The translations under genes and the position numbers were made by a program. This document shows positions 5,082 to 38,153 of a stretch of 64,000 bases of DNA, piece after piece. The number at the start of each line of letters is the position of its first letter. The stretch's first letter is position 1. The notes beneath the pieces were generated by a model. That model was not told the DNA's origin. It was given only the letters and a program-made list of their open reading frames with translations, and searched no databases. Where the stretch lies: the NCBI GenBank assembly GCA_045660545.1, contig JAZREA010000026.1, positions 12,561 through 76,560 of the forward strand, written 5' to 3'. Source of the DNA: Clostridia bacterium. GTDB taxonomy: Bacteria > Bacillota > Clostridia > Monoglobales > Firm-18.

Positions 5082-6383
5082 ATGACATCTAAGTCTAAAA
5101 GCCTTACAAAGCTTATGGTATCAGTAATTGTTATTATTGCTCTTAGCTATGTGGCTTTATTCGGAGTTTCACTTGGCGACAACTTTGTCGGCGGTGTACT
5201 TCAAACTGAAAAGTCGGGCATCAAGCTTGGTTTCGACCTTAGCGGTGGCTCGGTTATTACTTACGAGGCGGACGCAGCTTCAGTTTCAGATTCTGAAATG
5301 AATACTGCTGTTAACATGCTTCAGACAAGGCTTACAAACCTTGGTTATACAGAAGCCACTGTTGCAAAACAGGGCGACAAAAGAATCAGGATTGAAATTC
5401 CTGACGTTTCCAACGACGAGGCCGTTGAAAAGCTCGGCACACCGGGAAAGCTTACTTTCCGTAACGGTGCGGGCGAGGTCCTGATGGAAGGTACAGACGA
5501 GTTTATTAAAGACGCGGCTGCTGAATACAACACTGAACAAGGCTATTTTGTAAGCCTTGAGTTTACAAAGGCGGGACAGGATAAGTTTGCGGCGGCAACT
5601 GCTGCTGTTTACGGCAAAGAGGACCCAAGAATTTATATCTACCTTGACGAAGAAGTACAGTCTGCTCCTACTGTTCAGCAGGTTATAAACGACACTTCGT
5701 GCGTAATTACAGGTGATTTTACAAGCGAGCAGGTTAACTGGCTTGCCAACACAATCAAGGAAGGCCAGATGCCCTTTGCCCTTACTTTAAGGTCTACAAG
5801 CAGCGTTAGTGCAACACTTGGCGAGAAGGCTCTTTCAACAAGTATGGCAGCTTGCGGAATCGGTATTCTTCTGGTTATGCTGTTTATGCTTATATTCTAC
5901 AGAATTCCGGGCCTTATTGCTGACGTAGCGCTTTTGGGATACATTTCAGTACTCGCTCTTATACTTTGCGAGTTTGAGTCTATTACAGGCGGCTCGGTTA
6001 TCAACCTTACCCTGCCGGGAATAGCGGGTATCGTGCTCGGCGTAGGTATGGCGGTTGATGCTAACGTAATTATTTTCGAAAGAATTAAAGAGGAACTTTC
6101 GCTTGGTAAGACCGTTGGCGCTGCAACTGAATCAGCTTTCAAAAGAGCGTTCACTGCCATCTTAGACGGTAACGTAACAACATTCATAGTAGCAGTTATA
6201 CTCTTTGCACTTGGAACAGGTACTATCAAGGGCTTTGCTATTACACTTGGCCTTGGTATCATAATCAGTATGCTGTCAGCTGTTGTAGTTACACGCTTTA
6301 TGTTAAAGGCACTTATCGGGCTTAACATCAGAAACCCTAAGCTTTACGGTGCTTCATTGAGAGGGGGCAAGAAAGATGCTTAA
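5082..6383 (+). CDS. secD: protein translocase subunit SecD
   Basis: 433 aa with N-terminal TM, periplasmic-type domain, and a C-terminal 5-TM block (GIAGIVLGVGMAVDANVIIFERIKEE). Confidence 0.92.
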   Translation: MTSKSKSLTKLMVSVIVIIALSYVALFGVSLGDNFVGGVLQTEKSGIKLGFDLSGGSVITYEADAASVSDSEMNTAVNMLQTRLTNLGYTEATVAKQGDKRIRIEIPDVSNDEAVEKLGTPGKLTFRNGAGEVLMEGTDEFIKDAAAEYNTEQGYFVSLEFTKAGQDKFAAATAAVYGKEDPRIYIYLDEEVQSAPTVQQVINDTSCVITGDFTSEQVNWLANTIKEGQMPFALTLRSTSSVSATLGEKALSTSMAACGIGILLVMLFMLIFYRIPGLIADVALLGYISVLALILCEFESITGGSVINLTLPGIAGIVLGVGMAVDANVIIFERIKEELSLGKTVGAATESAFKRAFTAILDGNVTTFIVAVILFALGTGTIKGFAITLGLGIIISMLSAVVVTRFMLKALIGLNIRNPKLYGASLRGGKKDA

Positions 6384-7269
6384 TGTTATTAAATCAAAGA
6401 CGATTTGTTTTGCTGTTTCTATTGCCATAATTGTTGCGGGTATTGTTTGCTATTTTGTAAACGACGGCTTTAACCTCGATATCGACTTTACAGGTGGCAC
6501 AACCATTACAGTTGATATGCAGGGTAAAGAATATGCTGTTTCCGATGTAGAAGCTCTTATTGATGACACACTCGGCTATCCGGCTTCAAGCGTTCAGAAT
6601 TCTGACGGCAGCGTTATCATAAGCATCAGCACTCCAAAGACTGTTAACGATAATGCGGCTCTTTCAACTGATGACCGTGTTAAGCTTTTTAACGCAATAA
6701 AGGACAAGTATTCTCTTACAGAAGAGGCTCTTACAGACTACGACAGTATCGACGCTACAATCGGCGACGAGCTTAAAAGCAGCGCTATCTTGTCTTGTGT
6801 AATTGCACTTATCCTGATGCTTTGCTACATTTCAGTTAGGTTTGAATTCTTCTCAGGTATAGCTGCTGTTTTGTCGCTTTTGCATAACGTTTTGGTTTTG
6901 CTCAGCGTTTATGCTATATTCCAGCTTAACATCAACACAACATTCATCGCCGCTATCCTTACGATAGTTGGTTATTCTATCAACGATACAATCGTTACCT
7001 TCGACAGAATAAGAGAGATTAACCGCAAGGTCAGAAAGACTCCTTTTGATGTAATAGTTAATAAGGGCGTTAATGAAACAGTTGTTCGTTCGATTAATAC
7101 ATCTGTTACAACCTTGCTTACAATCGTACTTTTGTACATCGTTGGTGTAGAATCTATAAAAGAGTTTGCTTTCCCGATAATAATCGGTATAATCGTAGGA
7201 ACATATTCCTCAATATTTATTGCAAGCCCGATTTGGGAACTCTTCAAGGGTAACAAGAAGGCTGCATAA
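6376..7269 (+). CDS. secF: protein translocase subunit SecF
   Basis: 297 aa, overlaps the secD stop. Carries the SecF motif GYSINDTIVTFDRIRE. Confidence 0.92.
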   Translation: MLNVIKSKTICFAVSIAIIVAGIVCYFVNDGFNLDIDFTGGTTITVDMQGKEYAVSDVEALIDDTLGYPASSVQNSDGSVIISISTPKTVNDNAALSTDDRVKLFNAIKDKYSLTEEALTDYDSIDATIGDELKSSAILSCVIALILMLCYISVRFEFFSGIAAVLSLLHNVLVLLSVYAIFQLNINTTFIAAILTIVGYSINDTIVTFDRIREINRKVRKTPFDVIVNKGVNETVVRSINTSVTTLLTIVLLYIVGVESIKEFAFPIIIGIIVGTYSSIFIASPIWELFKGNKKAA

Positions 7270-7283
7270 CAGCTTTAATTTTT

Positions 7284-7314
7284 AAAAAAAGGGACCTTTT
7301 TAGGTCCCTTTTTC
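7284..7314. terminator. bidirectional rho-independent terminator (secF / recN convergent)
   Basis: A-run, GGGACC, 6-nt loop, GGTCCC, T-run, between convergent genes. Confidence 0.75.
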
Positions 7315-7318
7315 TTTG

Positions 7319-8995
7319 CTATTTTTTAGTTCTGATTTCAGTTGCCTGCTTAATCATTTCCGCCGCCGCTTCAAGCGTTGTGGCGGTTATTTGTGCCCCG
7401 CCGATTATACGCGCAAGCTCGCTCTGGCGTTGTTTGTCATCAAGCGTTTTAACGTCCGTAAAGGTGCTTTGGTTGTCCATCGACTTTTCGATTAAAAAGT
7501 GTGTGTCTGCCATAGCAGCAATCTGTGCTAAATGAGTGATGCAAAGGACTTGCTTGTTTTTAGAAATCTTGTTGATTTTTTCTGCAATCTTTTGCGCAGC
7601 TCTGCCGCTGACGCCGGTGTCAATTTCGTCAAATATAAGCGTGTCGACAGGGTCAGTGTTTGCAAAAATCGTCTTTATCGCAAGCATAATTCTTGACATC
7701 TCGCCGCCGGAAGCTATTTTGGAAAGTGGCTTTAACGGCTCACCTGCGTTTACAGAGATTAAAAACTCTACTTCGTCGCAGCCGTTGGTGTTGAAGTTGC
7801 CTTCCCTGATGTCTACTGCAAACTTAACTCTCGACATATCAAGGTCTGCAAGCTCTTTTGCTATTTTGTCGCTAAGTTCTTCGGCAGCACTGCGCCTTAG
7901 TGAGGTAAGCGTGTCGGCGAGCTTTTTGCGTGCGATTTTTGCTATATCAAGCTCTTTTTTTAGCTTTGTTATCTCCTCGTCGCTTTGTATAATAGTCTTT
8001 AATTTTTCCTCGGTTTCGTCTTTGTATGTTAAAATATCTTCGATAGAGTTGCCGTATTTTCTTTTGAGAGCGTTAATGGTACCAAGCCTGTTTTCAATCT
8101 CGTCAAGCTCGCCCTCGTTGTAGCTTATAGAGTCTTTGTAGTCGCGAATCTGGTATATAACGTCGTCTAGGTCTATTGTTATACTGTTTAACCGTCCGTA
8201 TATTTCATCCAGCTTTTCGTCGTATTTGCTGACTGATATAAGCTCGTTTGCAGCACCCGACAAAACGTCGTACGCGTTGTTGTCGCTTTCGTACAAGACA
8301 CGGTGGGCGCTATTTATAGCTTCCGAGATTTTTTCCACACTGTTTAAGAACTTTCTGCGTTCCGCAAGCTTTTCGTCTTCACCTGCTACAAGGTTTGCGG
8401 CCTCGATTTCTCTGATCTGGAAGGTAAAGAGGTCAACTTGCCGTTCTTTTTCCTGCTCGTCAAATTGCAGGGAGTCTATCTTGTCCTGAAGATTTAAAAC
8501 CAGATTGTGTTCCTCGCGGTATGCGGCAAGGTCGCTCGAAATTTTGGCGTAGTCGTTTAAAAAATGTATGTGTGACGACGGAGAGAGCAAGGATAAGTTG
8601 TCTTGCTGACCGTGAATGTTTATAAGCATTTCTGCTATTTTTCTTATGTTCGACGCTGTAGTCATAGAGCCGTTGATTTTACATACACTTTTTCCGTCCG
8701 TGTTAATATCACGGTATAAAATTACTACGTTGTCTTCGGCCTCGACCCCAAGGTCAAAAAGCCTGTTTATAACTTCCTTGTTATCTATGTAAAACATGGC
8801 TTCCACAACAGCCTTCGACTCGCCGTTTCTGATAAGCGACTTGCTTGTGCGCTCGCCCAGAACCATATTGATAGAGTCTATTATAATTGACTTGCCGGCA
8901 CCGGTTTCGCCGGTAAGGACGTTGAATCCGTGTTTGAATTCAATTTCGGCTTCGTCAATAACTGCTATGTTTTTTATGTGTAGCCTTTCAAGCAT
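7319..8995 (-). CDS. recN: DNA repair protein RecN
   Basis: 558 aa. N-terminal Walker A (LTGETGAGKS), long coiled-coil, and C-terminal SMC signature (SGGEMSRIMLA...LIFDEIDTG). Confidence 0.95.
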   Translation of the reverse strand: MLERLHIKNIAVIDEAEIEFKHGFNVLTGETGAGKSIIIDSINMVLGERTSKSLIRNGESKAVVEAMFYIDNKEVINRLFDLGVEAEDNVVILYRDINTDGKSVCKINGSMTTASNIRKIAEMLINIHGQQDNLSLLSPSSHIHFLNDYAKISSDLAAYREEHNLVLNLQDKIDSLQFDEQEKERQVDLFTFQIREIEAANLVAGEDEKLAERRKFLNSVEKISEAINSAHRVLYESDNNAYDVLSGAANELISVSKYDEKLDEIYGRLNSITIDLDDVIYQIRDYKDSISYNEGELDEIENRLGTINALKRKYGNSIEDILTYKDETEEKLKTIIQSDEEITKLKKELDIAKIARKKLADTLTSLRRSAAEELSDKIAKELADLDMSRVKFAVDIREGNFNTNGCDEVEFLISVNAGEPLKPLSKIASGGEMSRIMLAIKTIFANTDPVDTLIFDEIDTGVSGRAAQKIAEKINKISKNKQVLCITHLAQIAAMADTHFLIEKSMDNQSTFTDVKTLDDKQRQSELARIIGGAQITATTLEAAAEMIKQATEIRTKK

Positions 8996-9006
8996 AAAAT
9001 CACCCT

Positions 9007-9459
9007 TTATTTAATCAACTGAGTAAGCTTTTCCTTTACTTCAAGCGCTTTTTGAGGTGTTTTGGTTATTATAAGCACTGTGTCGTCGCCTGCGATAGTG
9101 CCGATTACAGAGCTGTCTTCAAGCGAGTCGATAGCGGAGGCAGCAGCGTGTGCCGTACCGCTTAAAGTGTTTACTACCAGGAGGTTTTGAGCGTCTTCAA
9201 CCGATATAACGCTGTTGCTGAAAATATCAATCAGCTTAACAGAATAGTCCGTAGACACATCCTCGGGTATAACATACCTCATTACGCCGCTTATCGACTG
9301 TTTAACAAGGTTTAAGTCCCTTATGTCTCTTGACACCGTCGCCTGTGTAACGTTATATCCCATAGCGTTAAGCTTTTTTGCGATATCCTCCTGACGCTCT
9401 ATGCTTTCGGTTTTAATAAGCTCTAATATTTTCTTGTGGCGTTGTTTTTTAGTGTACAT
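9007..9459 (-). CDS. argR: arginine repressor ArgR/AhrC
   Basis: 150 aa with winged-helix N-terminus (QATVSRDIRDL) and C-terminal GTIAGDDT oligomerisation/arginine motif. Confidence 0.9.
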   Translation of the reverse strand: MYTKKQRHKKILELIKTESIERQEDIAKKLNAMGYNVTQATVSRDIRDLNLVKQSISGVMRYVIPEDVSTDYSVKLIDIFSNSVISVEDAQNLLVVNTLSGTAHAAASAIDSLEDSSVIGTIAGDDTVLIITKTPQKALEVKEKLTQLIK

Positions 9460-9462
9460 AGG

Positions 9463-10302
9463 TTATATTTCCTTTTCAAAGAATTTTTTCTTCAGCTTGT
9501 TGTAAAACGACTTTTCATCCTGTCTTATTGTGTTAAGATATCCGCCGTGTTCGATCTTGATTGTGTGAGCGCCCTCAAGCTCCGATACCATATTGCCGTC
9601 AACAGACAGCGCGCATTTGCTGTCAGCGTTGTTAATTTTAACTTCAATGTTAGCGTCCATCGGCACCACAATACTGCGAAGATGCAGATTGTGTGGGCAA
9701 ATCGGAGTAATTATAAATGCCTTTACAGACGGGTTAACAATAGGCCCGCCGGCAGACATTGAGTATGCGGTAGAACCGGAGGAGGTAGATATAATCAGCC
9801 CGTCGGCGCGGAACTTGTTCATCGACACCCCTTCAATTATAATCTCCGTGTCAATCATCTTAGGGGAAAAAGCTCTGTAAACAGTTACCTCGTTAATGCA
9901 AAGGCTGACGTCCTCGTGGTGCGTAACCTTTATAATTGGCAGCTTTTCAAGAATATATTTTCCTTCTAAAACCTTTAAAAGTCCGCTTTCCTCGTCGTGC
10001 TGTTCAAGCTCTGTTAAAAAGCCGATGTTGCCGTAGTTTATGCCTAAAACAGGCGTGTCTGTGTTGATATATTGCTTGCTGTGTGAAAGAAACGTTCCGT
10101 CCCCGCCGATTATAACCGCGAGGTCTACGTCCTTTTCTGTGGCTATGTCGACAAATTCTGCCTTAATCTTATACTGTTGCATATCTTTGCTCATAATAGG
10201 GGTTACGCCGTGTTTTGCAAGTATTTTAGCAACTTTTTTGGCGCCCTTTGCGTCCTTGTCTCGTTCTAAGTTTGTGATAACAACTGCCTTTTTCATAAGC
10301 AA
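9463..10302 (-). CDS. nadK: NAD kinase
   Basis: 279 aa with GGDGT motif (VIIGGDGTFL) and NAD-kinase C-terminal domain. Confidence 0.9.
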   Translation of the reverse strand: MLMKKAVVITNLERDKDAKGAKKVAKILAKHGVTPIMSKDMQQYKIKAEFVDIATEKDVDLAVIIGGDGTFLSHSKQYINTDTPVLGINYGNIGFLTELEQHDEESGLLKVLEGKYILEKLPIIKVTHHEDVSLCINEVTVYRAFSPKMIDTEIIIEGVSMNKFRADGLIISTSSGSTAYSMSAGGPIVNPSVKAFIITPICPHNLHLRSIVVPMDANIEVKINNADSKCALSVDGNMVSELEGAHTIKIEHGGYLNTIRQDEKSFYNKLKKKFFEKEI

Positions 10303-10320: not shown

Positions 10321-11115
10321 TTATAGATCGTGAGAACTTTCTACAATCGTTTCAACCGGTATATCAGTGTCTACACCTTGCTTTGAAATATACATAAGAT
10401 ATTCGATATTACCCTCAGGCCCTTTGATAGGAGAGAATGTCACCCCTAAAACATTAAAGCCAATCTCTCTTGTAAACGAGAGCACGTTCTCTATTACTTC
10501 GATGTGTACGTTTTTGTCACGTACAACACCTTTTTTACCCACTTTTTCGCGCCCTGCTTCAAACTGTGGCTTAATCAGCGCCACTACTCGCCCGTCGTCT
10601 TTTAAAAGGTTGTACACAACAGGCAAAACAAGTTTTAAGGAAATAAACGCAACATCTATCGAAGCAAAGTCAAGCAACTCGTCTACATCGTCGTTTGTGA
10701 CGTAGCGGATGTTTGTGCGTTCCATGTTTACGACTCTTTCGTCCTGACGAAGCTTCCATGCGAGCTGGCCGTAGCCTACGTCCACACAGTACACCTTTTT
10801 GGCGCCGTTTTGCAGCATACAGTCAGTAAATCCGCCCGTTGATGCACCTACGTCCATGCAAACAAGCCCTGTTAAATCGAGGCTGTATTCGCTCATCGCC
10901 TTTTCAAGCTTCAAGCCGCCGCGGCTTACGTATTTAAGCGCAGAGCCTCTTACCTCAACAACGTCAGTTTCCTTAACCATGTCGCCAACCTTGTCGGCCT
11001 TTTGGTTGTTTATATACACAACGCCTTCCATAATAAGGCCCTGTGCTTTTTGTCTGCTTTCTGCCAGACCGTTTTCAACAATATATACGTCTAATCTTTG
11101 CTTCAAAGAGCGCAC
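10321..11115 (-). CDS. tlyA: TlyA-family rRNA 2'-O-methyltransferase (hemolysin A-like)
   Basis: 264 aa with an N-terminal S4 domain and a SAM motif (DVGASTGGFTD). Confidence 0.9.
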   Translation of the reverse strand: MRSLKQRLDVYIVENGLAESRQKAQGLIMEGVVYINNQKADKVGDMVKETDVVEVRGSALKYVSRGGLKLEKAMSEYSLDLTGLVCMDVGASTGGFTDCMLQNGAKKVYCVDVGYGQLAWKLRQDERVVNMERTNIRYVTNDDVDELLDFASIDVAFISLKLVLPVVYNLLKDDGRVVALIKPQFEAGREKVGKKGVVRDKNVHIEVIENVLSFTREIGFNVLGVTFSPIKGPEGNIEYLMYISKQGVDTDIPVETIVESSHDL

Positions 11116-12944
11116 ATCCTTTCGATGACCTTTGCTATTGAGGCGGAGTCAACCCCTTGACTTTCGTAGAGCTTTTGCACGTCGCCGTGTGTAACGAGCG
11201 TGTCGCTGTAACCTATTTTTTCAACCGCCATTCCGATTGCGTCTTCGACTATACTGCCAAGCCCTCCGCATACAGTGTTGTCCTCTACGGTTATTACCCT
11301 TTTGGTCTTTTGTGCGGATTTTAGTATAGTTTCGCGGTCGATAGGTTTAATAGTCCTTATGTCAATAACCTCGACACTGTATTTGGACATAGCCGCCGCA
11401 TCAAGCGCGTTTTTAAGCATAGTTCCCTCTGCGATAACAGTAATATCTTCGCCGGGCTTTACTACAACAGCCTTTTGGAACTCGAATTTTTCTTCGGATT
11501 CTGCCGATTCACTGCCAAACGACCTTGGGTACCTTATCGCGATGGGCATATCGTGCTTTTCAACTGCATATTCAAGCATCTGCTCCAACATAGAGCAGGA
11601 AGAAGGTGCAAGGATAGATACGTTTGGTAACGCGTTAAGGTAGGAAATATCAAAAATTCCGTGGTGCGTTTCACCGTCTGCTCCCACAAGACCTGCACGG
11701 TCTATCGCCAGTACAACGTGCGCCTTTTGAAGGATAAGGTCGTGGAATATATTATCATACGCCCTTTGTAAAAATGTGGAGTAAATAGCAACGACAGGAA
11801 TAATACCGCCTTTTGCCAGTCCGCCTGCAAATGTAACTGCGTGTCCTTCTGCAATCCCGACGTCAAAGAATCTTCTTTTGAATTTCTCAGAAAACTCATT
11901 AAGCCCTGTTCCGTCGGGCATAGCTGCGGTAATTGCAACAACCTTGTCGTTTTTTGATGCAATTTCGCACATCTTGTCGCCAAAAACTTTTGATGGAGAA
12001 GGGGAGGATGAACTACCAACTGTTTTACCGGTTGTGATGTCAAACTTGCCTATCCCGTGGAATTTCTTCGGGTTTTGTTCGGCGTGGATATAGCCCTTAC
12101 CCTTTTTGGTATATGTGTGTATCATAACAGGCCCGTTTATAGACCTTGCTCTTTTAAACACCTCAATCATCGCTTCGATGTTGTGGCCGTCAACAGGGCC
12201 TATGCACTTAAAGCCAAGCTCGTCAAAAATTGTCGATTTAACCAAAGTTTTTCTGGCAACGGCCTTTACACCGCTAATTGCAATATAAATAAACTTGCCT
12301 AAAAGCGGAATCTTCCTTAAAGTGTTGGAAACACTGCTCTTTGTCTTAAAGTATCCGGGGCTTGTGCGTAGCTTGTTAAGGTAGAGCGATAGTCCGCCTA
12401 CGTTTTTAGCAATCGACATTTCGTTGTCGTTTAAAACAACGATAAAGTTGGAGCTGAGCCTGGATGCGTTGTTGATTCCTTCAAATGCCAATCCACCGCT
12501 GAGCGCTCCGTCGCCGATAACTGCAACGACCGAGTTGGTTTCTCCTTTTAAGTCGCGGGCACACGCGTATCCAAGTGCCGCAGATATAGAGTTGCTTGCG
12601 TGCCCTGCGTTAAAGGCGTCAAACTCGCTCTCGTCCGAGCGGGGAAAGCCGCTTATTCCGCCAAAGCTGCGTAGTGTGTCAAAAGCGTCCGCTCTTCCTG
12701 TTATAATTTTATGTGCATACGACTGGTGTCCAACGTCCCATACGATTTTATCCTGCGGACAGTCGAAAACCGAGTGTAACGCCAAAGTCAGGTCGACAAC
12801 ACCAAGGCTTGACGCCAGATGCCCACCTGTTTTCGAAACACTATGTATCATAAATTCTCTTATTTCAAGAGCAAGCTCATTAAGAGACTTTATATCAAGT
12901 TTTTTAATATCCTGAGGTCCTTTAATACCTTTTAATAACTGCAA
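11103..12944 (-). CDS. dxs: 1-deoxy-D-xylulose-5-phosphate synthase
   Basis: 613 aa with TPP motifs (GHQSYAHKIITGR, GDGALSGG). Confidence 0.95.
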   Translation of the reverse strand: MQLLKGIKGPQDIKKLDIKSLNELALEIREFMIHSVSKTGGHLASSLGVVDLTLALHSVFDCPQDKIVWDVGHQSYAHKIITGRADAFDTLRSFGGISGFPRSDESEFDAFNAGHASNSISAALGYACARDLKGETNSVVAVIGDGALSGGLAFEGINNASRLSSNFIVVLNDNEMSIAKNVGGLSLYLNKLRTSPGYFKTKSSVSNTLRKIPLLGKFIYIAISGVKAVARKTLVKSTIFDELGFKCIGPVDGHNIEAMIEVFKRARSINGPVMIHTYTKKGKGYIHAEQNPKKFHGIGKFDITTGKTVGSSSSPSPSKVFGDKMCEIASKNDKVVAITAAMPDGTGLNEFSEKFKRRFFDVGIAEGHAVTFAGGLAKGGIIPVVAIYSTFLQRAYDNIFHDLILQKAHVVLAIDRAGLVGADGETHHGIFDISYLNALPNVSILAPSSCSMLEQMLEYAVEKHDMPIAIRYPRSFGSESAESEEKFEFQKAVVVKPGEDITVIAEGTMLKNALDAAAMSKYSVEVIDIRTIKPIDRETILKSAQKTKRVITVEDNTVCGGLGSIVEDAIGMAVEKIGYSDTLVTHGDVQKLYESQGVDSASIAKVIERMCAL

Positions 12945-12954
12945 TACGCTAACC

Positions 12955-13533
12955 TCATTTCTTCTTACGTTTAAACAGCTTGTCCTTAAAGTAAAGTAAC
13001 AAAGCGACTTTGTAAACTATCGCGTCCGCGCGCCTCATCGCCATACCCTTGCCAAGAGCCTTTCCGCCTACTGTAAATGCTGCAACCGCAGAGGTTAAAA
13101 TAAGCGAAAAAACGGTCGACTGAGCGCCCGTCTGAGCCATACGTGCGACAATAACAGTGGCAGTAGCACCACTTATAATACCGACAATATCTCCGACAAC
13201 GTCGTTGCAAAAGCTCGCTACTTTATCAGAGCTTTTGATAAGTTCAATAGCATTTTGTGAGCCTTTAATCTTTCTTGCCGCCATAGAGTGAAAAGGTACA
13301 TCAGACGCCGTTGCTACGGCGATACCGATAATGTCAAAAACAATACCGATAAATATAAGAACAAGTAATAAAATAAACGCCATTAAAAGATTTATACCTG
13401 ATAAAATCTCTGACGAGCTGTAGCTTAGTACAATCGAAATGATAAAAGACCAAAGTATAATTGTAATGGCCCACTTGTAGTTGTTGGGTTTTTTTGCGGT
13501 ATCTTTAAATTTAATTTTATTGCCCAAAGGCAA
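12955..13533 (-). CDS. oapA: OLE-associated membrane protein OapA (candidate)
   Basis: 192 aa (about 21 kDa), about 4 TM. Sits immediately downstream of a roughly 600-nt noncoding gap and upstream of dxs, the published OLE/oapA synteny. No direct homology check was possible. Confidence 0.7.
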   Translation of the reverse strand: MPLGNKIKFKDTAKKPNNYKWAITIILWSFIISIVLSYSSSEILSGINLLMAFILLLVLIFIGIVFDIIGIAVATASDVPFHSMAARKIKGSQNAIELIKSSDKVASFCNDVVGDIVGIISGATATVIVARMAQTGAQSTVFSLILTSAVAAFTVGGKALGKGMAMRRADAIVYKVALLLYFKDKLFKRKKK

Positions 13534-13559
13534 ATCACCTCTTTATTATAAAAAAAGTG

Positions 13560-14165
13560 TGGTAACGCACAAAGTAAACTTTACGGCTTAGGTCTGCCTG
13601 AATTTCTCCACAAAATGCCGATTTGTCGCCAAAAAGGAGGTTTCCCCTTAGATTTTGCGTTGCCGAGTTACCAAAGGCACTGGCAGATTGCCACTTAGAC
13701 CGTACTGCAATCCCTTGTGCGTTTTATAAAAAACAGCCTAGGAGTTTTCCTCAACAGTCACGCCAATTCTTGTCCTCTTTTGCAGGTGTGGTTTCAAGAA
13801 GCGATAACGTCGCATCATCGGCCAATGAAGAGACGTCTGATCTTTTATCCACCACAACCACTCAAGGCAGGCTACACTACCCACAGCATAATTAATCTAC
13901 ACCGCAAAGTAGGTTTCATCCTAATTCGTACAGCTCAAAAAGATGTCGCAAGTTGTAATGTCGCTGCACGATATTAGGTCTCCACGGAAACAGGGTCAAC
14001 GCCCGCATGCCATTGCGGATCGCCCTATTACCTTAACTCCCAGCATCAACCCGCGACTGGGCGTCGCAAGCAAACACAAGGAACTTCATCGATATGCCCT
14101 TTTACGGATTTTTAGGCCCGTCTTGGGAATTGGCAGAACTGACTAGGATACTGCACCACATTTTA
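13560..14165 (-). ncRNA. ole: OLE (ornate, large, extremophilic) RNA, candidate; ends approximate
   Basis: About 600 nt with no minus-strand ORF, only short ORFs on the plus strand. Visibly GC-richer than flanks and dense in local stems. Lies between ispA and the oapA-like gene inside xseAB-ispA-[gap]-oapA-dxs-tlyA-nadK-argR-recN. Confidence 0.7.
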
Positions 14166-14170
14166 TTTAA

Positions 14171-15040
14171 TTATTTGTTTCTTGTAAGTAAATATTCCGA
14201 AAGGCCAAGCAAAAAGTCCGCCCTTTTGCCAAAGGGCATAAGAGCTGCTTTTGCAAGCGCCGTGTGTTCTTTTAGCTTTTGCTTTGCACCGTCTATGCCA
14301 AAGAGCGTAACGTAGGTCTGGATGCCTCGCTTTTCGTCGCTGCCCACAGGCTTGCCCAATACCTCCTGAGTGCTCTGTACGTCCAAAATATCGTCCATAA
14401 TCTGAAAGGCTATTCCAAGGTTGTCCGCAAAGTCGTCGATTGCTTTTAGCTCGTCCTCATTTGCCTGCGCACACATTGCACCAAGCCTGCACGAAAGCTT
14501 AATAAGAGCGCCCGTTTTCATCTTATGAACTGTTTTTAACTCTTCGTAGTTTTTAGCACCGCTTATGTCTATAACCTGTCCGCCAATCATTCCGTCTGCT
14601 CCTGCGGCTGAGGCTATTTCGTTAATAGCTTTTAAAGTAACAGCCAAAGGCGTCTTAGAAAGCGACGCGGTCTCAAAAGCATAGGTCAAAAGAGTGTCCC
14701 CTGCAAGCAGAGCTATTGCTTCCCCGAACTTTTTGTGGTTTGTAGGAAGGCCACGCCTGTAATCGTCGTTGTCCATACAAGGCAGGTCGTCGTGAATCAG
14801 GGAATATGTGTGTATAAATTCAACGGCAGCGGCAAAGTGCTTTGCGCTTGATACGTCCTGACCAAGCATCTCACATACCGAGTATGTAAGAAGTGGCCTT
14901 AGCCGCTTTCCGCCTGCTTTAACCGAGTAGTTGGCGGAGTCGAATATAACCGAGTGAAGACCTTCCCCCTTAGGAGAAAGCTCGCCTATCCAGCCGTTTA
15001 TAACGTCAATTTTAGCTGTAAGTTCAGCGTTAAAGTCCAT
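14171..15040 (-). CDS. ispA: farnesyl diphosphate synthase / polyprenyl synthetase
   Basis: 289 aa with both Asp-rich motifs (LIHDDLPCMDNDDYRRG and FQIMDDILD). Confidence 0.92.
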   Translation of the reverse strand: MDFNAELTAKIDVINGWIGELSPKGEGLHSVIFDSANYSVKAGGKRLRPLLTYSVCEMLGQDVSSAKHFAAAVEFIHTYSLIHDDLPCMDNDDYRRGLPTNHKKFGEAIALLAGDTLLTYAFETASLSKTPLAVTLKAINEIASAAGADGMIGGQVIDISGAKNYEELKTVHKMKTGALIKLSCRLGAMCAQANEDELKAIDDFADNLGIAFQIMDDILDVQSTQEVLGKPVGSDEKRGIQTYVTLFGIDGAKQKLKEHTALAKAALMPFGKRADFLLGLSEYLLTRNK

Positions 15041-15041
15041 T

Positions 15042-15269
15042 TTATTCCTCCGGTGTATCGAATTCTTGTTTTACAATTTCGCCGTTTTTGTTAACTAAAA
15101 TGTTAATTTTCTTCTCTGCTTCATCAAGCGCCTTGTTGCATACGGCAGAAAGCTTCATGCCCTTTTCAAAGAGGGTAATCATCTCATCTAATGACAACTT
15201 GCCTTCTTCTAATGTCTTTACGATTGCTTCAAGCTCAGTGATAGAGCTTTCAAAATTCAAGTTTTCCAT
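15042..15269 (-). CDS. xseB: exodeoxyribonuclease VII small subunit
   Basis: 75 aa with the typical start FESSITELEAIVKTLEEGKLSLDE. Follows xseA. Confidence 0.9.
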   Translation of the reverse strand: MENLNFESSITELEAIVKTLEEGKLSLDEMITLFEKGMKLSAVCNKALDEAEKKINILVNKNGEIVKQEFDTPEE

Positions 15270-15273
15270 ATAA

Positions 15274-16521
15274 TCACCTTTTAACCGTGTTGTTAACGGT
15301 ACATTCTATTTTTCCGTCTGTAACGCGAACGCTAAGACTGTCTCCCGCACTGACCTCGCTTATGCTTGTAACAGTTCCGCGCTCTGTCGCCACAGAGCTG
15401 TAACCTCTTGTCATAACTTTTAGCGGGCTCAGCGCGTCGAGCTTTGCCAAGAGCACCTGGGCGCTTTTTAGCCTGTCGTGGAAAAACTCCTGCGAAAGAC
15501 GGCTGAGCTGTTGTGTTGCACGTTCGTTTCTTTGTTCACTCTGTGAAACAGATGTGCCGACACCACTCACAAGTTTTTGAACCATATTGTCTGTTCTTAG
15601 CCTGCTCTGGTTTATAAAGTCCATCGGGCTTTTAATGCTAAAGCTTGAAACAAGCCTTCTTTTGTAGTCAAATTCTTTTTTAATACTGCCAAGCATTCGT
15701 GACTGAAACTCGGTCAGCTTTTGCTTTAATTCAATCGAGGAAGGAACCGCAAGCTCAGCGGCAGCGGAAGGAGTAGGTGCTCTCAAATCTGCCACAAAGT
15801 CGGCGATGGTAAAGTCTGTTTCGTGCCCCACCGCAGAAATAATCGGTATTTCGGAGTTGTAAATTGCGTATGCGACTCGCTCGTCGTTAAAGCTCCATAA
15901 ATCCTCGATAGAGCCACCGCCGCGGCCGACTATAATTACGTCTGCCATCTTGTGTCGGTTAAGGTGCTCTATTGCGTTAACAATCTGCTGTGCGGAGCCG
16001 TCGCCTTGGACAAGCACCGGGCAGATTAAAATTTCTGCCATAGAAAACCGCCTTGAAGCCACGTTTATAATATCTCTCACAGCAGCTCCCGTGTGAGACG
16101 TTATAACCCCAACTGTCTTGGGAAAGGCGGGTATAGCCTTTTTGTGCGCAGAGTCAAACATGCCTTTTTCCTGCAACTGCTTTTTAAGAAGCTCGTACGC
16201 AACGTGCAGGTCTCCGACCCCGTCGGGCTGCATAGCCGAGATGTACAGCTGATATTGTCCGTCACGCTCGTAGAGCGATATCTTACCCGATGCGATAATC
16301 TTCATTCCGTTTTCAGGAGTAAAGTTGAGTCGGGCGGCGTACCCTTTAAACATAACCGCCCTGATTGTAGCGGTCTCGTCCTTTAAGGTCATGTAACAAT
16401 GACCCGAGGAATGAAGCTTAAAGTTTGAAATTTCCGCACGCACCGAAACGGAGCTGAGATTCATGTCTGTTTCAAGCAGCGTCTTTATATACTTGTTAAG
16501 CTGTGTAACGGAAATTGCCAC
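15274..16521 (-). CDS. xseA: exodeoxyribonuclease VII large subunit
   Basis: 415 aa with N-terminal OB fold (SVTQLNKYIKTLLE) and a catalytic core including GRGGGS. Confidence 0.92.
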   Translation of the reverse strand: MAISVTQLNKYIKTLLETDMNLSSVSVRAEISNFKLHSSGHCYMTLKDETATIRAVMFKGYAARLNFTPENGMKIIASGKISLYERDGQYQLYISAMQPDGVGDLHVAYELLKKQLQEKGMFDSAHKKAIPAFPKTVGVITSHTGAAVRDIINVASRRFSMAEILICPVLVQGDGSAQQIVNAIEHLNRHKMADVIIVGRGGGSIEDLWSFNDERVAYAIYNSEIPIISAVGHETDFTIADFVADLRAPTPSAAAELAVPSSIELKQKLTEFQSRMLGSIKKEFDYKRRLVSSFSIKSPMDFINQSRLRTDNMVQKLVSGVGTSVSQSEQRNERATQQLSRLSQEFFHDRLKSAQVLLAKLDALSPLKVMTRGYSSVATERGTVTSISEVSAGDSLSVRVTDGKIECTVNNTVKR

Positions 16522-16539
16522 CTTTTACGTACCTCCGAG

Positions 16540-16941
16540 TTAATTTTTGTCCTTTAAAACAGAAGACAAAACCCCGTTAACATACCCTGCGGCCTGTTCG
16601 CCCTCGTATGTTTTGGCCAAAGCAACAGCCTCGTTTATAGCCACTGTGTCGGGGATGTCATCAGAAAAAAGTATTTCATAAATCCCGAGAGTAAGGGCTG
16701 CCAGTGTAATTTTAGAAAGTCTTTCGATTTTCCAGCCTTTCGACTTTTCGGAAATTTTTGCATTAATTATTTCTGCGTTTTGCTCAATACCCTCGACAGC
16801 GCTAAGTATGTAGGATTTTGACTTGTCGTCAATGTCCTTATCTGCCGACGCTATATCGAAGATGTATTTTGTGTTTTCTTTTTGTATTTCAGATTGGTAA
16901 ATCAGCTTAAAGACAAAGTCTCTTGCAAGTTTACGTGTCAT
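16540..16941 (-). CDS. nusB: transcription antitermination factor NusB
   Basis: 133 aa, RKLARDFVFKLIYQ start, typical NusB helical fold length. Confidence 0.9.
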   Translation of the reverse strand: MTRKLARDFVFKLIYQSEIQKENTKYIFDIASADKDIDDKSKSYILSAVEGIEQNAEIINAKISEKSKGWKIERLSKITLAALTLGIYEILFSDDIPDTVAINEAVALAKTYEGEQAAGYVNGVLSSVLKDKN

Positions 16942-17115
16942 AATAGCATCATTTCTCCTAAATAGTGTAAAAAATATTCATACTTATTTAATATTATACA
17001 ATATATATGCAGAAAAATAAATAGTTTTTTCAAAGTTTTTTTAAAAAAAATTTACTTTTTGCATATTTTGTGCTAAAATATACCAAGAGCTTGTAAAACA
17101 AAAGGAGGAATACAT

Positions 17116-18354
17116 ATGGACAAGTTTGATAAAATATCTTTTTATCCTGCAAATATATGTTTGCCGAAAAATACAGATATGACAAAGTGGAGCGTCGTAG
17201 CGTGCGACCAGTATACATCACAGCCTGATTATTGGAACGGCGTAGAAGACTTTATAGGGGACGGCGTGTCCGCATATAATCTTGTTTTGCCCGAGATATA
17301 TCTTAATAACGCAGACGTAGATGAAAAGATTAAAGATATAAATATAAATATGGACGAGTATTTAAAGAGCGTATTGTCTGAACACAAGGACTGCTACATA
17401 TATGTCGAAAGAACGCTAAGGAGCGGCTCTGTAAGAAAGGGCATAGTTGGTATGGTAGACCTTGAACATTACGAGTTTGCACCGGGCAACAACGCTAAAA
17501 TACGCGCAACAGAAGGCACTGTTACCGAAAGAATACCTCCGCGTATGAAGGTGAGGAAGAATGCTTCGCTTGAATTGCCTCACGTTATGCTGTTAATAGA
17601 CGACGAGGAAGATGCGGTGTTTAGTACAGTTGCGGACAACTTAGGCGAAGAACTTTACAGCTTCCCTCTTATGATGGACAGTGGTTATATTAAAGGTTCC
17701 CTTGTAGCGGATAACGGCTTACTGGCAGACACCCTTTGCAGCCTTATGGACAAAAACGAGGACAAAAACGGCACAATGCTGTTTGCTGTCGGCGACGGCA
17801 ACCATTCTCTCGCTACTGCCAAGGCTTGTTGGGAAGAGTTAAAATCAAACTCCGACGTGCCACAAAATCATCCTGCAAGATACGCTCTTGTAGAGGTTGT
17901 AAATATCCACGACAGCGGTCTTTTGTTCGAGCCTATTCACAGAATTGTCTTTGGATGCGACGAGGAAAAGCTTTTGGATGAGTTTATAAAATATTGCGAG
18001 GCACAAACGGATGAGGTTGAAAATTGTCAGCAATTACAAGTAGTTAACAACTGTAAAGCTACCGCGCTTTACATCAAAAAACCGACATCAAATCTTACGG
18101 TCGGAACACTCCAGAAGTTTTTGGACGAATATATTGCTAAATACGGCGGCGAGGTAGACTATATACACGGCGCGGACGTTGTAGAGGAGCTTTCGAAGCA
18201 ACCCAAAACAATAGGTTTCTTGCTTCCCAAGCCGTCAAAGTCATCCTTGTTTGAAACGATAATCAAGGACGGAATTTTGCCGCGCAAAACATTTTCAATG
18301 GGCGAAGCCTACGATAAGAGATTCTATACAGAAGCAAGAAAAATTGTTTTTTAA
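17116..18354 (+). CDS. DUF1015 domain-containing protein
   Basis: 412 aa. The N-terminal region with SVVACDQYTSQPDYW matches the DUF1015 family pattern as recalled. Strong AAAGGAGG RBS. Confidence 0.8.
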   Translation: MDKFDKISFYPANICLPKNTDMTKWSVVACDQYTSQPDYWNGVEDFIGDGVSAYNLVLPEIYLNNADVDEKIKDININMDEYLKSVLSEHKDCYIYVERTLRSGSVRKGIVGMVDLEHYEFAPGNNAKIRATEGTVTERIPPRMKVRKNASLELPHVMLLIDDEEDAVFSTVADNLGEELYSFPLMMDSGYIKGSLVADNGLLADTLCSLMDKNEDKNGTMLFAVGDGNHSLATAKACWEELKSNSDVPQNHPARYALVEVVNIHDSGLLFEPIHRIVFGCDEEKLLDEFIKYCEAQTDEVENCQQLQVVNNCKATALYIKKPTSNLTVGTLQKFLDEYIAKYGGEVDYIHGADVVEELSKQPKTIGFLLPKPSKSSLFETIIKDGILPRKTFSMGEAYDKRFYTEARKIVF

Positions 18355-18381
18355 TTTAGCTTCGCTGTACGAGAGGTATAT

Positions 18382-19323
18382 ATGATATCTTTAAATGGAA
18401 AAGTTGTTTTAGCTCCAATGGCGGGAATAACAGACCGCGCTTTCAGAGAAGTGTGCATGGACTATGGTGCAGATATGTGCTTTACCGAGATGGTAAGCAC
18501 AAAGGGCCTTTACTATAACGATAAAAAGACCAGGACTCTTCTTGAAGTTTCCGAAAAAGAACAGCCCGTTTTTGCACAGCTTTTTGGCCACGAGCCGCAA
18601 ATTTACACCTCTGTTGTAAGAGAGGCCGCTTCCTTTGGTGCGTGTGGCATAGATATTAACTGCGGATGCCCTGCCAAAAAGATTATAACCAACCACGACG
18701 GCGGATATATGATGAAATCTCCGAAGACGATTTATGATGTTGTCCGCGCTGTCAAGGAGAGCACAGACCTGCCTGTTTCTGTTAAAATAAGGCTTGGTTG
18801 GGACGACGACAGTAAAAATGCAGTCGAGGTTGCGCGCCTGGCCGAGAAGGCGGGTGTGTCGCATATTACCGTACACGGCAGAACTGTTTCTCAAGCCTAC
18901 ACAGGCAAGGCGGATATAGACGGGATATATAAAGTGGTGCAAAGCGTGTCGGTCCCTGTTATTGCAAACGGGGACATAACCACGCCCGTCCTGGCGCAGG
19001 AAATGTTTGAAAAAACAGGGTGCGCCGCCATTATGATAGGCAGAGGTGCATTGGGCAATCCGTTTATTTTCGGGGCTGTCCGTTCTTATCTGGACGGAGG
19101 CGAGCTTTTGGACGCGCCAACGTACGAAGAGAGGATAAATACAGCTCTTGTGCATATTAAAAAAATTGTTCTTTATAAGGGCGAGTCGGTAGGCATAAAA
19201 GAGGCACGAAAGCACGCTCTTTGGTACGTAAAGGGAATGAAAAACAGCGTCAGGGTAAAGCAGCTTTTAACCTCAGCCACAAGCTATGAGGAAATGGAGA
19301 CACTGCTTACCTCTCTGATATAA
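18382..19323 (+). CDS. dusB: tRNA-dihydrouridine synthase (DusB-like)
   Basis: 313 aa with LAPMAGITDRAFR start and INCGCPAKK catalytic Cys motif. Confidence 0.9.
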   Translation: MISLNGKVVLAPMAGITDRAFREVCMDYGADMCFTEMVSTKGLYYNDKKTRTLLEVSEKEQPVFAQLFGHEPQIYTSVVREAASFGACGIDINCGCPAKKIITNHDGGYMMKSPKTIYDVVRAVKESTDLPVSVKIRLGWDDDSKNAVEVARLAEKAGVSHITVHGRTVSQAYTGKADIDGIYKVVQSVSVPVIANGDITTPVLAQEMFEKTGCAAIMIGRGALGNPFIFGAVRSYLDGGELLDAPTYEERINTALVHIKKIVLYKGESVGIKEARKHALWYVKGMKNSVRVKQLLTSATSYEEMETLLTSLI

Positions 19324-28749: not shown

Positions 28750-29043
28750 ATGACAGGAAAACAAAGAGCGTATCTTAGGATGTTGGCTAACAGCATTGAT
28801 TCAAAGTATCAGATTGGCAAAAACGGAGTGGAGCCAAACACAGTTTCGATGATAGACGAGGCGCTGGAGGCCAATGAACTTATTAAAATAAAGGTTTTAG
28901 AAAACTCTATGCTTGACGTAAGGGAGACTTGCAACGAGGTGTGCGAAAAGACAAACGCCCATCCTGTACAGTGCATAGGAAGCAAGTTTGTTATATATAG
29001 AGAGTCTAAAAATAATAAAAAAATTGTTGTTCCAAAAAAATAG
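28750..29043 (+). CDS. yhbY: YhbY-like CRM-domain RNA-binding protein
   Basis: 97 aa. LTGKQRAYLR...QIGKNGV...ELIKIKV pattern is typical of YhbY. Confidence 0.85.
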   Translation: MTGKQRAYLRMLANSIDSKYQIGKNGVEPNTVSMIDEALEANELIKIKVLENSMLDVRETCNEVCEKTNAHPVQCIGSKFVIYRESKNNKKIVVPKK

Positions 29044-30685: not shown

Positions 30686-31384
30686 CTAATCTATCATCTT
30701 GTTTATTTCTTTTCTTAGCTTGCTGATAATCTTTTTTTCCAGCCTCGAAATGTAAGATTGCGATATTCCAAGCATGGTTGCGACCTCTTTTTGCGTTTTT
30801 TCGCCCGTTGTTCCAATGCCAAAGCGCAAATTTATGATGTTTTGCTCGCGGCTTGACAGCTTGTGCATCGCCTCGTGCAACAGCTCGCGGTCCACCGCGT
30901 CTTCGATACCTCTGTGTGTAACGTCAGGGTCTGTGCCGAGTATGTCTGAGAGCAAAAGCTCGTTTCCGTCCCAGTCGGTGTTTAATGGCTCGTCGATAGA
31001 CACCTCGTTTTTAGAGTTGCTGTTTTTTCTAAGGTACATCAGTATCTCGTTTTCTATGCACCTTGATGCGTATGTAGCAAGCTTTATGTTTTTGCCGGGG
31101 TTAAAGGTGTTTACCGCCTTTATAAGACCGATTGTGCCGATGGAAATTAAGTCTTCAATGTTAATCCCCGTGTTTTCAAACTTTTTTGCAATATACACAA
31201 CAAGCCTTAGGTTGTGTTCGATTAACATATTTTTAGACTTTTCTTCGTCTATTTCCAAAAGGCACTTTTTCTCTTCCTCGGGCGACAGAGGGGGAGGCAG
31301 TATGTCACTGCCTCCGATATAGTTTATGCAGTTTCTTTTGAAATTTAATAATATCTTAATAATTTCAAGAAATATTGACACCAT
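30686..31384 (-). CDS. sigE: sporulation sigma factor SigE (pro-sigma-E)
   Basis: Sigma-70 regions 2-4 ([30 protein letters not shown]) with an N-terminal pro-sequence. Preceded by spoIIGA. Confidence 0.9.
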
Positions 31385-37474: not shown

Positions 37475-37564
37475 AAAGTCTTTTATTTTGAAATAATATG
37501 TGTTATAATGAGAAAAACAAATAAGTTTTGTGTACAAAAGACAAGTAAGAAGGGAGCGCTTTTA

Positions 37565-38076: not shown

Positions 38077-38153
<77 letters not shown>

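Follow-up and report, generated by a model that had tools for sequence, protein, structure and literature searches.

The window analysed here is a 64,000-nucleotide stretch of DNA from a member of the Clostridia, and it carries a long operon on its minus strand. At the operon head (15042-16941) we identified nusB (16540-16941; TIGR01951), which is followed by xseA (15274-16521; TIGR00237) and xseB (15042-15269; TIGR01280), and then by ispA, which encodes farnesyl diphosphate synthase (14171-15040; NF045485, 329 bits, and PF00348). An OLE RNA gene (13543-14175) and oapA (12955-13533) come next, also on the minus strand. Downstream of these lie dxs (11103-12944; TIGR00204, 724.5 bits), tlyA, which encodes an rRNA 2'-O-methyltransferase (10321-11115; TIGR00478, 282.7 bits), nadK (9463-10302; PF20143 and PF01513), argR (9007-9459; TIGR01529, 136 bits) and recN (7319-8995; TIGR00634, 546 bits), again all on the minus strand. 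The operon ends at a terminator-like palindromic hairpin of 12 bp with T-runs (7286-7313). SpoIIGA is also encoded in the window.

A first-pass annotation, made from the letters alone, had named ispA, dxs, xseA, xseB, tlyA, nadK, argR and recN as neighbours of an OLE RNA and had read the arrangement as matching the published operon gene for gene. Pfam and NCBIfam verified each of these neighbours, and with nusB added the order nusB-xseA-xseB-ispA-OLE-oapA-dxs-tlyA-nadK-argR-recN bears that reading out. The annotation was thus able to recognise both the RNA and its operon in raw sequence. A second terminator-like hairpin (14238-14219) might break the operon ahead of OLE, but it falls within the coding frame of ispA, with 46 nt still to go to the stop codon. 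Since matches to terminator-like hairpins are also barely enriched over shuffles (18 versus 11.5), we treat this break as unproven.

Sequence, fold and conserved motifs of the OLE RNA

OLE RNAs form a class of large, highly conserved, membrane-associated bacterial noncoding RNAs that may span the membrane; their hosts are typically anaerobic or extremophilic Bacillota. The proposal that one of them occupies the gap between ispA and oapA was confirmed by a covariance-model search, in which the Rfam OLE model RF01071 matched the minus strand from 14175 to 13543 with 513.4 bits (E 1.1e-147). The match runs over model positions 1-616 of 616 and is not truncated; its score is about ten times the gathering score of 50 bits, and it fills the gap (13534-14170) exactly. 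The conserved core begins with GUGGUGCAG at 14159. As had been claimed, the gap holds no credible minus-strand ORF, the longest being 48 aa.

The interval had further been described as GC-richer and stem-rich. It is GC-richer than oapA (0.45-0.47 versus 0.34-0.42), but ispA and dxs match it in GC content (0.43-0.52), so this part of the description stands against one neighbour only. Its richness in stems is not in doubt: the minimum free energy of the OLE RNA is -203.5 kcal/mol, compared with -183.5 +/- 7.6 in shuffled sequences (z = -2.65), none of the 20 being as stable. OLE had likewise been called known but rare. Known it is, and its rarity is only relative, with 2,846 GTDB assemblies carrying it in a published survey (PMC11332333). 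The same paper defines OLE variants 1 and 2; its bit-score cut-offs were set for another model, and the RF01071 score cannot be held directly against them. Unlike these variants, the RNA in the window has the architecture of a full-length OLE, in that all Rfam helices align, P7, P8 and a long P9 are present, and P7 and P8 carry insertions rather than deletions.

We compared the window OLE with 60 others, to which it is 56-78% identical (nearest, 77.6%). Across the 61 aligned RNAs, 87.9% of cells are paired, versus 38-49% with slid partners, and 124 of 164 pairs covary with both sides changed, a level of support that 0 of 500 shuffles reach. In the window copy itself, 139 of 159 Rfam pairs are canonical (87.4%; family mean, 87.9%). 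It has lost none of the columns that are invariant in the 61-sequence alignment. The motifs checked were the loops L4, L5, L6 and L9.3, the strands of the k-turn and the GNRA loops, and each of them is kept in its majority form or in a common one.

The whole RNA is closed by P1, whose 5' strand GUGGU (14155-14159) pairs with ACCAC (13559-13563). In this helix (helix 1), 92.1% of cells are paired and four of five pairs have changed on both sides, and the same pairing appears in the minimum-free-energy fold of the window OLE. The 3' strand, placed by the alignment, is followed by a U7 tract (13556-13550); a T-rich tract stands 3' of this strand in 26 of the 61 OLEs.

The highly conserved loops L4, L5/L6 and the palindromic L9.3 serve RNA dimerisation (PMC12286853, PMC12265935). 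The A-rich L4 loop CUAAAAAU (14108-14115), which cryo-EM has shown to form dimer bridge B1 (PMC12286853, PMC12265935), is unchanged in 59 of the 61 OLEs. The P5 hairpin loop CGCCCAG (L5; 14057-14063), which makes an inter-RNA bridge with L6/L7 (PMC12265935, PMC12286853), is identical in 60 of 61, while the P6 hairpin loop CAAUGGCAUG (L6; 14006-14015) has the majority form, found in 41 of 61. L9.3, here UUGGCCGA (13818-13825), is a symmetric kissing loop that forms bridge B3, and covariation of its palindrome has been described (PMC12286853); the palindrome GGCC is present in the window copy and in all six commonest loop forms of the alignment.

The strands and loops that contact protein partners elsewhere can be placed as well. 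The J4a/5 k-turn strand AUCGAUGAAG (14084-14093), in its majority form (37 of 61), is a putative OapC site by correspondence with the published one (PMC9723947, PMC12286853), and its k-turn partner strand in J6/7 (PMC12286853), CGUGGAGAC (13978-13986), is also in the majority form (44 of 61). The P13 loop G-GUAA-C (13667-13672) and the P14.1 loop G-GCGA-C (13625-13630) are GNRA loops at the positions of the primary and secondary OapB sites, respectively, which combine such a loop with a bulged nucleotide (PMC7936274), and are putative OapB sites here; P13 carries a GNRA loop in most of the 61 OLEs, and the P14.1 loop has the commonest form (30 of 61).

Below the P13 loop, the distal 3-bp stem of the window OLE reads UUG/CUC, with two mismatches. 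We considered these as a special feature of this copy and ruled that out, because the distal helix (helix 20) is often non-canonical in relatives (70.7% paired). The 3' strand of P6 is CCCUGUUUCC and does not contain the CCUCCU anti-Shine-Dalgarno mimic described for H. halodurans. Given these P13 mismatches and the missing mimic, engagement of OapB and of bS21 may differ here. No OapB, OapC or bS21 gene came to light in the window when ten small ORFs were searched with Pfam and when, for OapC and RpsU, published sequences were run in tblastn. All three genes are usually located in other parts of the genome.

The OapA protein

The oapA gene adjoins OLE on the same strand, the OLE match ending at 13543 and the gene starting at 13527 or 13533. 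The ORF at 12955-13533 had been described as encoding a 192-aa four-helix membrane protein. The ORF is there and so are four hydrophobic segments; the length is more likely 190 aa. Its Shine-Dalgarno sequence AAAGAGGTG (13536-13544) overlaps the end of the OLE match. As it ends at 13536, it is better placed for the second in-frame TTG (13527), which is probably the start codon used. An NCBI protein (P0001) that is 99% identical to OapA is also 190 aa long.

The identification as OapA, expected by the first-pass annotation, is supported by homology, CNNM score, predicted fold and synteny. By BLASTP, the product is 40% identical over 170 aa (E 3e-38) to the OapA-labelled sequence in the supplement of PMC12286853, a machine-read text that does not state the source species. 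An AF2 model (pLDDT 85.3, pTM 0.74) predicts helices at residues 19-46, 49-75, 102-133 and 139-167. The motif FCNDVxGD aligns with the published OapA, with DVVGD opposite NDVIGD, and its two aspartates, D111 and D115, are invariant in 79 homologs. From their spacing and conservation, we infer that they are equivalent to the PM1 residues D100/D104 of H. halodurans OapA (PMC9723947). Charged residues, mostly basic, are confined to one face: the N-terminus, the central loop (76-101) and the C-terminus carry 18 K/R versus 5 D/E, and the other two loops have no charged residues.

Pfam CNNM (PF01595) matches OapA with 27.1 bits (cut-off 28.4, E 3.8e-6) over CNNM positions 1-131, and no other domain was found; the published survey likewise reports that OapA scores just under threshold, lower than MpfA proteins do (PMC11332333). 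Foldseek placed the OapA model closest to CorB/CorC transmembrane domains, which make up all of the best six PDB folds (probability 1.00, TM 0.47-0.55). Searches of PDB chains with the OapA sequence and with a 79-sequence OapA profile did not recover CNNM chains and gave only a chance K+ channel match (E 0.2), so the link to CNNM proteins rests on the sub-threshold Pfam match and the similarity of fold. NCBIfam contains no model for OapA, and database labels on its homologs read 'Mg2+ and Co2+ transporter CorB' or 'CBS domain containing-hemolysin-like protein'.

Among relatives, 80 loci encode a homolog of OapA, and in 72 of them OLE stands upstream of the gene in the same orientation; for several of the remaining eight, the upstream sequence is too short to judge. 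OLE-oapA-dxs is the universal order, and all 11 genes follow one another as in the window at 14 of the 80 loci, or at 21 if xseB may go undetected. The nearest loci belong to Oscillospiraceae, Clostridia and Bacillota MAGs. The nearest retrieved genome (Bacillota bacterium UR.bin154) has a mean protein identity of only 53%. OapA itself is at most about 50% identical to its counterparts in the nearest species-level genomes found, and up to 67% identical to metagenome proteins, with the one NCBI entry at 99%.

The ispA-OLE junction and OLE production

The ispA stop codon lies only 11 nt before the closing helix P1, which makes this the shortest junction of 31 loci. Two weak candidate promoters fall inside the end of ispA, CTTACA-17-TAAAAT (14188-14160, minus strand; 9/12 consensus) and TTTACT-16-TTAAAT (14192-14165, minus strand; 8/12 consensus). 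A register of 15-25 nt from the -10 element to the anchor is common to 44 of 62 loci, and the candidates in the window are outside it, at 8 and 13 nt. With ispA ending so close to P1, the OLE-proximal promoter shown by most relatives is, as far as promoter motifs can tell, weak or absent in the window.

The first-pass annotation had expected a discrete RNA processed from the operon transcript. The published picture is fuller: the model organism transcribes most of its OLE RNA from a dedicated proximal promoter, and only some is co-transcribed (PMC3413148). One could take the window as a departure from that picture, in which OLE in this lineage would have lost its dedicated proximal promoter and would be made only by read-through from nusB to recN followed by excision, with a reduced, OapA-centred partner set independent of OapB and bS21. 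The short junction and the weak, out-of-register promoter candidates suggest the first half of this scenario; the mismatched distal P13 stem and the anti-Shine-Dalgarno mimic missing from P6, together with the promoter loss, suggest the second. We consider the scenario unlikely. The 11-nt junction is nevertheless a natural case that could help to separate promoter-driven from processing-driven OLE biogenesis.

Interpretation and comparison with known systems

Collectively, we put at about 95% the probability that the locus holds a functional full-length OLE RNA gene and its obligate partner gene oapA in the conserved operon of an uncultured spore-forming member of the Clostridia (Bacillota). 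If the OLE were instead a decaying relic, and the interval merely untranslated spacer in an ispA-dxs operon, then the RNA should be non-functional. Twenty of the 159 pairs are non-canonical, with several of these in P9 and a further two in distal P13, and this would fit such decay, as would the lack of a strong dedicated promoter. However, the canonical fraction equals the family mean, all invariant columns are kept, every functional loop is intact and the RF01071 score is ten times the threshold. The partner oapA is intact too, with all its invariant residues, whereas defective OLE has been reported mainly where OapA is missing (PMC11332333). Together these observations leave decay very improbable. 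Harder still to credit is a protein-coding interval on the plus strand, where four ORFs of 67-90 aa do exist (13623-13895, 13717-13977, 13943-14146 and 14094-14315). They overlap one another in different frames, and opposite them lie the 3' end of ispA and the structured RNA with its match of 513 bits, to both of which they are antisense; no Pfam family scores above threshold, the sole match being Med7 (E 0.025, 15 bits versus a cut-off of 25.8), and conservation in relatives tracks base-pairing covariation, not codon structure. The earlier dismissal of these ORFs as artefacts was thus sound.

The protein invites a similar question, namely whether it is no more than a truncated piece of a Mg2+ transporter of the CorB/MpfA type, unrelated to OLE and beside it by coincidence. 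The database labels of its homologs, the CNNM match and the CorB-like fold all point that way, but the CBS and CorC domains are absent entirely, and the Pfam match covers only CNNM positions 1-131. [quoted passage not shown] A coincidental fragment is about as improbable as a relic RNA.

The functional OLE-oapA locus can be read through published work on OLE and OapA (PMC12265935, PMC12286853, PMC3413148, PMC11332333). By analogy with the OLE RNAs of H. halodurans and Clostridium, a stable RNA of ~600 nt would be freed from the operon transcript, made from a weak promoter at the 3' end of ispA, or both, and would dimerise through L4, L5/L6 and L9.3 contacts. A dimer of the CNNM-like four-helix OapA, whose binding sites on OLE lie at or close to P2 and P4a, would tether it to the membrane via the basic cytoplasmic face. 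Under the published hypothesis, which offers the likeliest mechanism, OapA may be a stripped-down core of a CNNM/MpfA-type divalent-cation transporter, for which OLE and further protein partners would supply the regulatory module that MpfA bears as CBS and CorC domains. In this putative role, the complex would tie Mg2+ handling, along with other homeostatic functions, to stresses that include alcohol, cold, high Mg2+ and poor carbon sources. The class is among the most intriguing of bacterial noncoding RNAs; the window copy is a standard full-length member in textbook gene context, its biology already known, and it adds nothing new to that puzzle. It offers one more divergent sequence for covariation analysis, which is of small practical value.

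Set beside the characterised full-length OLEs (RF01071; Halalkalibacterium halodurans, Clostridium acetobutylicum, C. botulinum), the window copy likewise matches the full-length model, has P7-P9, and shares the A-rich L4, L5/L6, GGCC in L9.3, the k-turn strands, the P13 and P14.1 GNRA loops and the 5'-3' closing helix. As at known OLE loci, oapA is directly downstream in the same operon neighbourhood. Relative to Rfam, its P7 is longer by 15 nt inserted at the variable tip and its P8 by 7 nt; unlike H. halodurans OLE, it has CCCUGUUUCC in place of the CCUCCU mimic; and unlike H. halodurans and most relatives, it appears to have a weak proximal promoter or none. The protein is 40% identical to the published OapA sequence and resembles BH2780-type OapA in its size (~21 kDa), its four predicted transmembrane helices, FCNDVxGD with two invariant aspartates that seem to match the PM1 sites, a basic cytoplasmic face, weak CNNM similarity and a gene directly downstream of ole. 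Compared with the CNNM/CorB/CorC/MpfA Mg2+ transporters (PF01595 DUF21; PDB 7M1T, 7M1U, 7CFG), OapA ends at residue 192 without a CBS pair or a CorC/HlyC domain and stays below the Pfam gathering threshold, whereas its modelled transmembrane fold is like theirs (TMq 0.47-0.55). Going by this model, OapA is related to these transporters in fold only and should not be filed as a member of the CorB/MpfA family.

The OLE interval and its operon

Scanning the whole window against Rfam 15 returned OLE (RF01071) as the sole dominant match, on the minus strand at 14175..13543, with 513.4 bits (E 1.1e-147) against a gathering score of 50 bits; the match is untruncated and spans all 616 model positions (1-616). 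The covariance-model check proposed in the first-pass annotation is thus positive, and a default Rfam scan suffices to find this RNA. That annotation had described a stem-rich, ORF-free gap, and the OLE match fills it; minus-strand ORFs between oapA and ispA reach 48 aa at most. The folding energy of the OLE strand (-203.5 kcal/mol) is also lower than that of dinucleotide-shuffled versions (-183.5 +/- 7.6 kcal/mol, z = -2.65), none of 20 shuffles being as stable. The gap was further said to be GC-richer than its surroundings, which holds relative to oapA (0.45-0.47 for OLE vs 0.34-0.42) but fails against ispA and dxs, both equally GC-rich. Plus-strand protein coding across the interval is contradicted by the data.

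Every neighbouring gene that had been named was recovered with Pfam and NCBIfam, and all lie on the minus strand. An AT-rich divergent region (16942-17115) heads the operon, followed by nusB (16540-16941), xseA (15274-16521), xseB (15042-15269), ispA/FPP synthase (14171-15040), OLE (13543-14175), the 192-aa ORF oapA (12955-13533), dxs (11103-12944), tlyA (10321-11115), nadK (9463-10302), argR (9007-9459) and recN (7319-8995), and a 12-bp palindromic hairpin with T-runs on its flanks (7286-7313) closes it. DUF1015 and dihydrouridine synthase genes (17116-19323, plus strand) diverge from the operon, and SecD and SecF (5082-7269, plus strand) converge on recN.

Elsewhere in the window, a Gut-1 RNA (RF01706; 38187-38260, plus strand; 72.6 bits, threshold 50) follows a tRNA (38077-38150, plus strand) at a distance of 37 nt; it has three short hairpins with GUGAAAU repeats between them, and Rfam assigns it no function. 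A THF riboswitch (RF01831; 32937-33050, minus strand; 66.5 bits) directly 5' of an ECF-transporter S component (PF12822; 32319-32873, minus strand) is the usual, ordinary folate-transporter arrangement. SpoIIGA (31365-32234, minus strand) is a spore-former signature, and genes for an Asp23-family protein (37508-37966) and a YhbY/CRM-domain RNA-binding protein (28750-29043) lie on the plus strand.

Identity of the 192-aa protein

Pfam gives the 192-aa protein a CNNM/DUF21 (PF01595) match only, at 27.1 bits, just below the 28.4 cut-off, and no match was found against NCBIfam or PDB sequences. Published OapA behaves the same way, forming the next-best cluster under MpfA on the PF01595 model (PMC11332333). 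The proposed OapA identity was borne out by comparison with a sequence labelled OapA (Kretsch et al. 2025 supplement, PMC12286853): the two share 40% identity across 170 aa (E 3e-38), FCNDVVGD of the window's protein aligning with FCNDVIGD; further tests agree. As anticipated, this is a four-helix membrane protein: it has four hydrophobic segments, and a confident AlphaFold2 model (pLDDT 85.3, pTM 0.74) places long helices at 19-46, 49-75, 102-133 and 139-167 and an amphipathic one at the C-terminus. With this predicted model as query, the best six Foldseek matches in the PDB, among them MtCorB (7M1T/7M1U) and CorC (7CFG/7CFF), are all CNNM-family transmembrane domains (probability 1.00, TMq 0.47-0.55); 7M1U was also used in the published OapA structure comparison (PMC11332333).

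In a 79-sequence alignment D111 and D115 are invariant, matching in spacing the H. halodurans OapA PM1 sites D100/D104, two conserved aspartates four residues apart (PMC9723947); F66, D67, G70, C109, G114, S121, G122, K158, G161 and K162 are also invariant. Charges are confined to one face and mostly basic: the two termini and the 76-101 loop together contain 18 K/R vs 5 D/E, the remaining two loops having none, in agreement with the basic cytoplasmic cluster of published OapA. Of the in-frame TTG codons, the second (13527) probably serves as the oapA start: the Shine-Dalgarno AAAGAGGTG, which runs to 13536, is spaced 8 nt from it but only 2 nt from the first. The product would then have 190 aa, as does a 99%-identical NCBI protein. 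Some databases give OapA homologs CorB/MpfA-type names.

Conservation of the RNA and of its pairing with oapA

We scanned one genome per GTDB species and obtained 80 loci encoding OapA homologs (41-51% identity), mostly from Oscillospiraceae and other Clostridia MAGs. With the window's OLE as nhmmer query, 72 of the 80 show a same-strand OLE upstream. OLE was not matched within the fetched flank at L008, L012, L017, L031, L048, L057, L073 and L076, several of which have too short an upstream flank to tell; at L012, L057, L073 and L076, with 6 kb, OLE may lie farther off or be divergent in form. The order OLE-oapA-dxs is constant wherever detected, and the full 11-gene order recurs in 14 of the 80 loci (21 if an undetected small xseB is tolerated). 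At L022, L024, L034, L035, L036, L062 and L069, 2.5-5 kb separate oapA from its upstream OLE, without direct adjacency, and further genes appear to be inserted between the two.

Covariation was assessed on an alignment of the window's OLE and 60 full-length relatives (identity 56-78%, median 65%; nearest, Bacillota bacterium UR.bin154, 77.6%), onto which we mapped the Rfam consensus structure extended by a closing helix of 5 bp, P1 (GUGGU 14159-14155 with ACCAC 13563-13559). Standard pairs occupy 87.9% of cells, vs 38-49% with 3' partners slid 1-3 columns; 124 of 164 pairs show changes on both sides, and 0 of 500 shuffles attained these values. For P1 itself the paired fraction is 92%, and 4 of its 5 pairs covary.

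In the window's copy, 139 of the 159 pairs are canonical, a fraction that matches the family mean, and the data contradict a reading of the interval as a decayed relic. They likewise contradict the view that the 192-aa protein is a CorB fragment lying beside OLE by coincidence: the sub-threshold CNNM match is set against OLE upstream of 72 of 80 homologs and 40% identity to labelled OapA and, since Pfam finds no CBS or CorC domain in it, the protein is not a CorB/MpfA family member. The earlier observation is therefore confirmed, and its OLE/OapA interpretation supported.

Transcription, working model and comparison with known OLE RNAs

In B. halodurans, OLE is made mainly from its own promoter just 5' of P1 and partly co-transcribed with its neighbours, with a half-life of ~3 h (PMC3413148). 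Among related loci, 44 of 62 share a register in which a -10-like hexamer ends 15-25 nt 5' of the GUAU anchor, itself invariant, and a perfect TTGACA-17-TATAAT precedes OLE in five; judged by sequence, this well-placed sigma-70-like promoter of most relatives is the putative counterpart of the B. halodurans promoter. In the window, just 11 nt lie between the ispA stop codon (14173-14171) and P1, and 19 nt between that codon and the anchor, which makes this ispA-OLE junction the shortest among 31 loci (relatives have at least 43 nt). The sole promoter candidates, CTTACA-17-TAAAAT (9/12 matches) and TTTACT-16-TTAAAT (8/12), lie within the last ispA codons, and their -10 elements stop 8 and 13 nt short of the anchor, outside the relatives' register. 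Because these candidates are weak and out of register, we infer that this OLE may rely more on operon read-through and processing. A terminator-like hairpin, TGCCCTTTGGCAAAAGGGCG then GACTTTTTGC (14219-14238, minus strand), sits within the ispA frame 46 nt before its stop, just 5' of OLE; it may have arisen by chance or act as an attenuator parting ispA from OLE transcription. A U7 tract (13550-13556, minus strand) directly follows the P1 3' strand, before the oapA Shine-Dalgarno, and may contribute to setting the 3' end of OLE or influence read-through into oapA; 26 of 61 OLEs have a T-rich tract there.

The window establishes the identity, intactness and context of OLE/OapA; mechanism comes from the literature. 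OLE binds OapA, which is required for its membrane localisation, and the RNP shields H. halodurans from alcohol, cold, raised Mg2+ and poor carbon sources (PMC12265935, PMC3413148); OLE homodimers form via L4, L5/L6/L7 and L9.3 (PMC12286853). The likeliest working model is still hypothetical in the field: OapA would be a minimal CNNM/MpfA-type divalent-cation transporter core, with OLE and accessory proteins standing in for the CBS and CorC regulatory domains of MpfA. The predicted fold match and the absent CBS/CorC domains are consistent with this model.

Motifs with published roles (PMC12286853, PMC12265935, PMC9723947, PMC7936274) occur here in forms that are the majority or common ones among the 61 OLEs: the A-rich L4 loop CUAAAAAU, the L5 loop CGCCCAG and L6 loop CAAUGGCAUG, k-turn strands AUCGAUGAAG and CGUGGAGAC, the GGCC palindrome of L9.3, and tetraloops GUAA on P13 and GCGA on P14.1. 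An Oscillospiraceae clade (L003, L005, L015, L022-L025, L035-L038, L040, L041, L044-L046, L050, L062, L064, L068, L070) carries an additional GC-rich hairpin between P5 and P6 (A2 columns 144-167), absent from the window's OLE, and has the J4a/5 strand CUGUGAAAC in place of CGAUGAAGU, altering the proposed k-turn/OapC region.

The small departures of the window's OLE do not distinguish it from its clade. Relative to the Rfam model it has +15 nt at the P7 tip and +7 nt at the P8 tip, both length-variable regions. Distally, P13 reads UUG/CUC over three pairs, in a helix often non-canonical in relatives too. The CCUCCU anti-SD mimic of H. halodurans OLE, the reported bS21 site, is replaced by CCCUGUUUCC in the P6 3' strand (13983-13992, minus strand), a form common to most of the 61 OLEs, with the conserved GGG/CCC pairs retained. 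The RNA is thus a standard member of a family whose description dates from 2006 and which 2,846 GTDB assemblies are reported to carry (PMC11332333).
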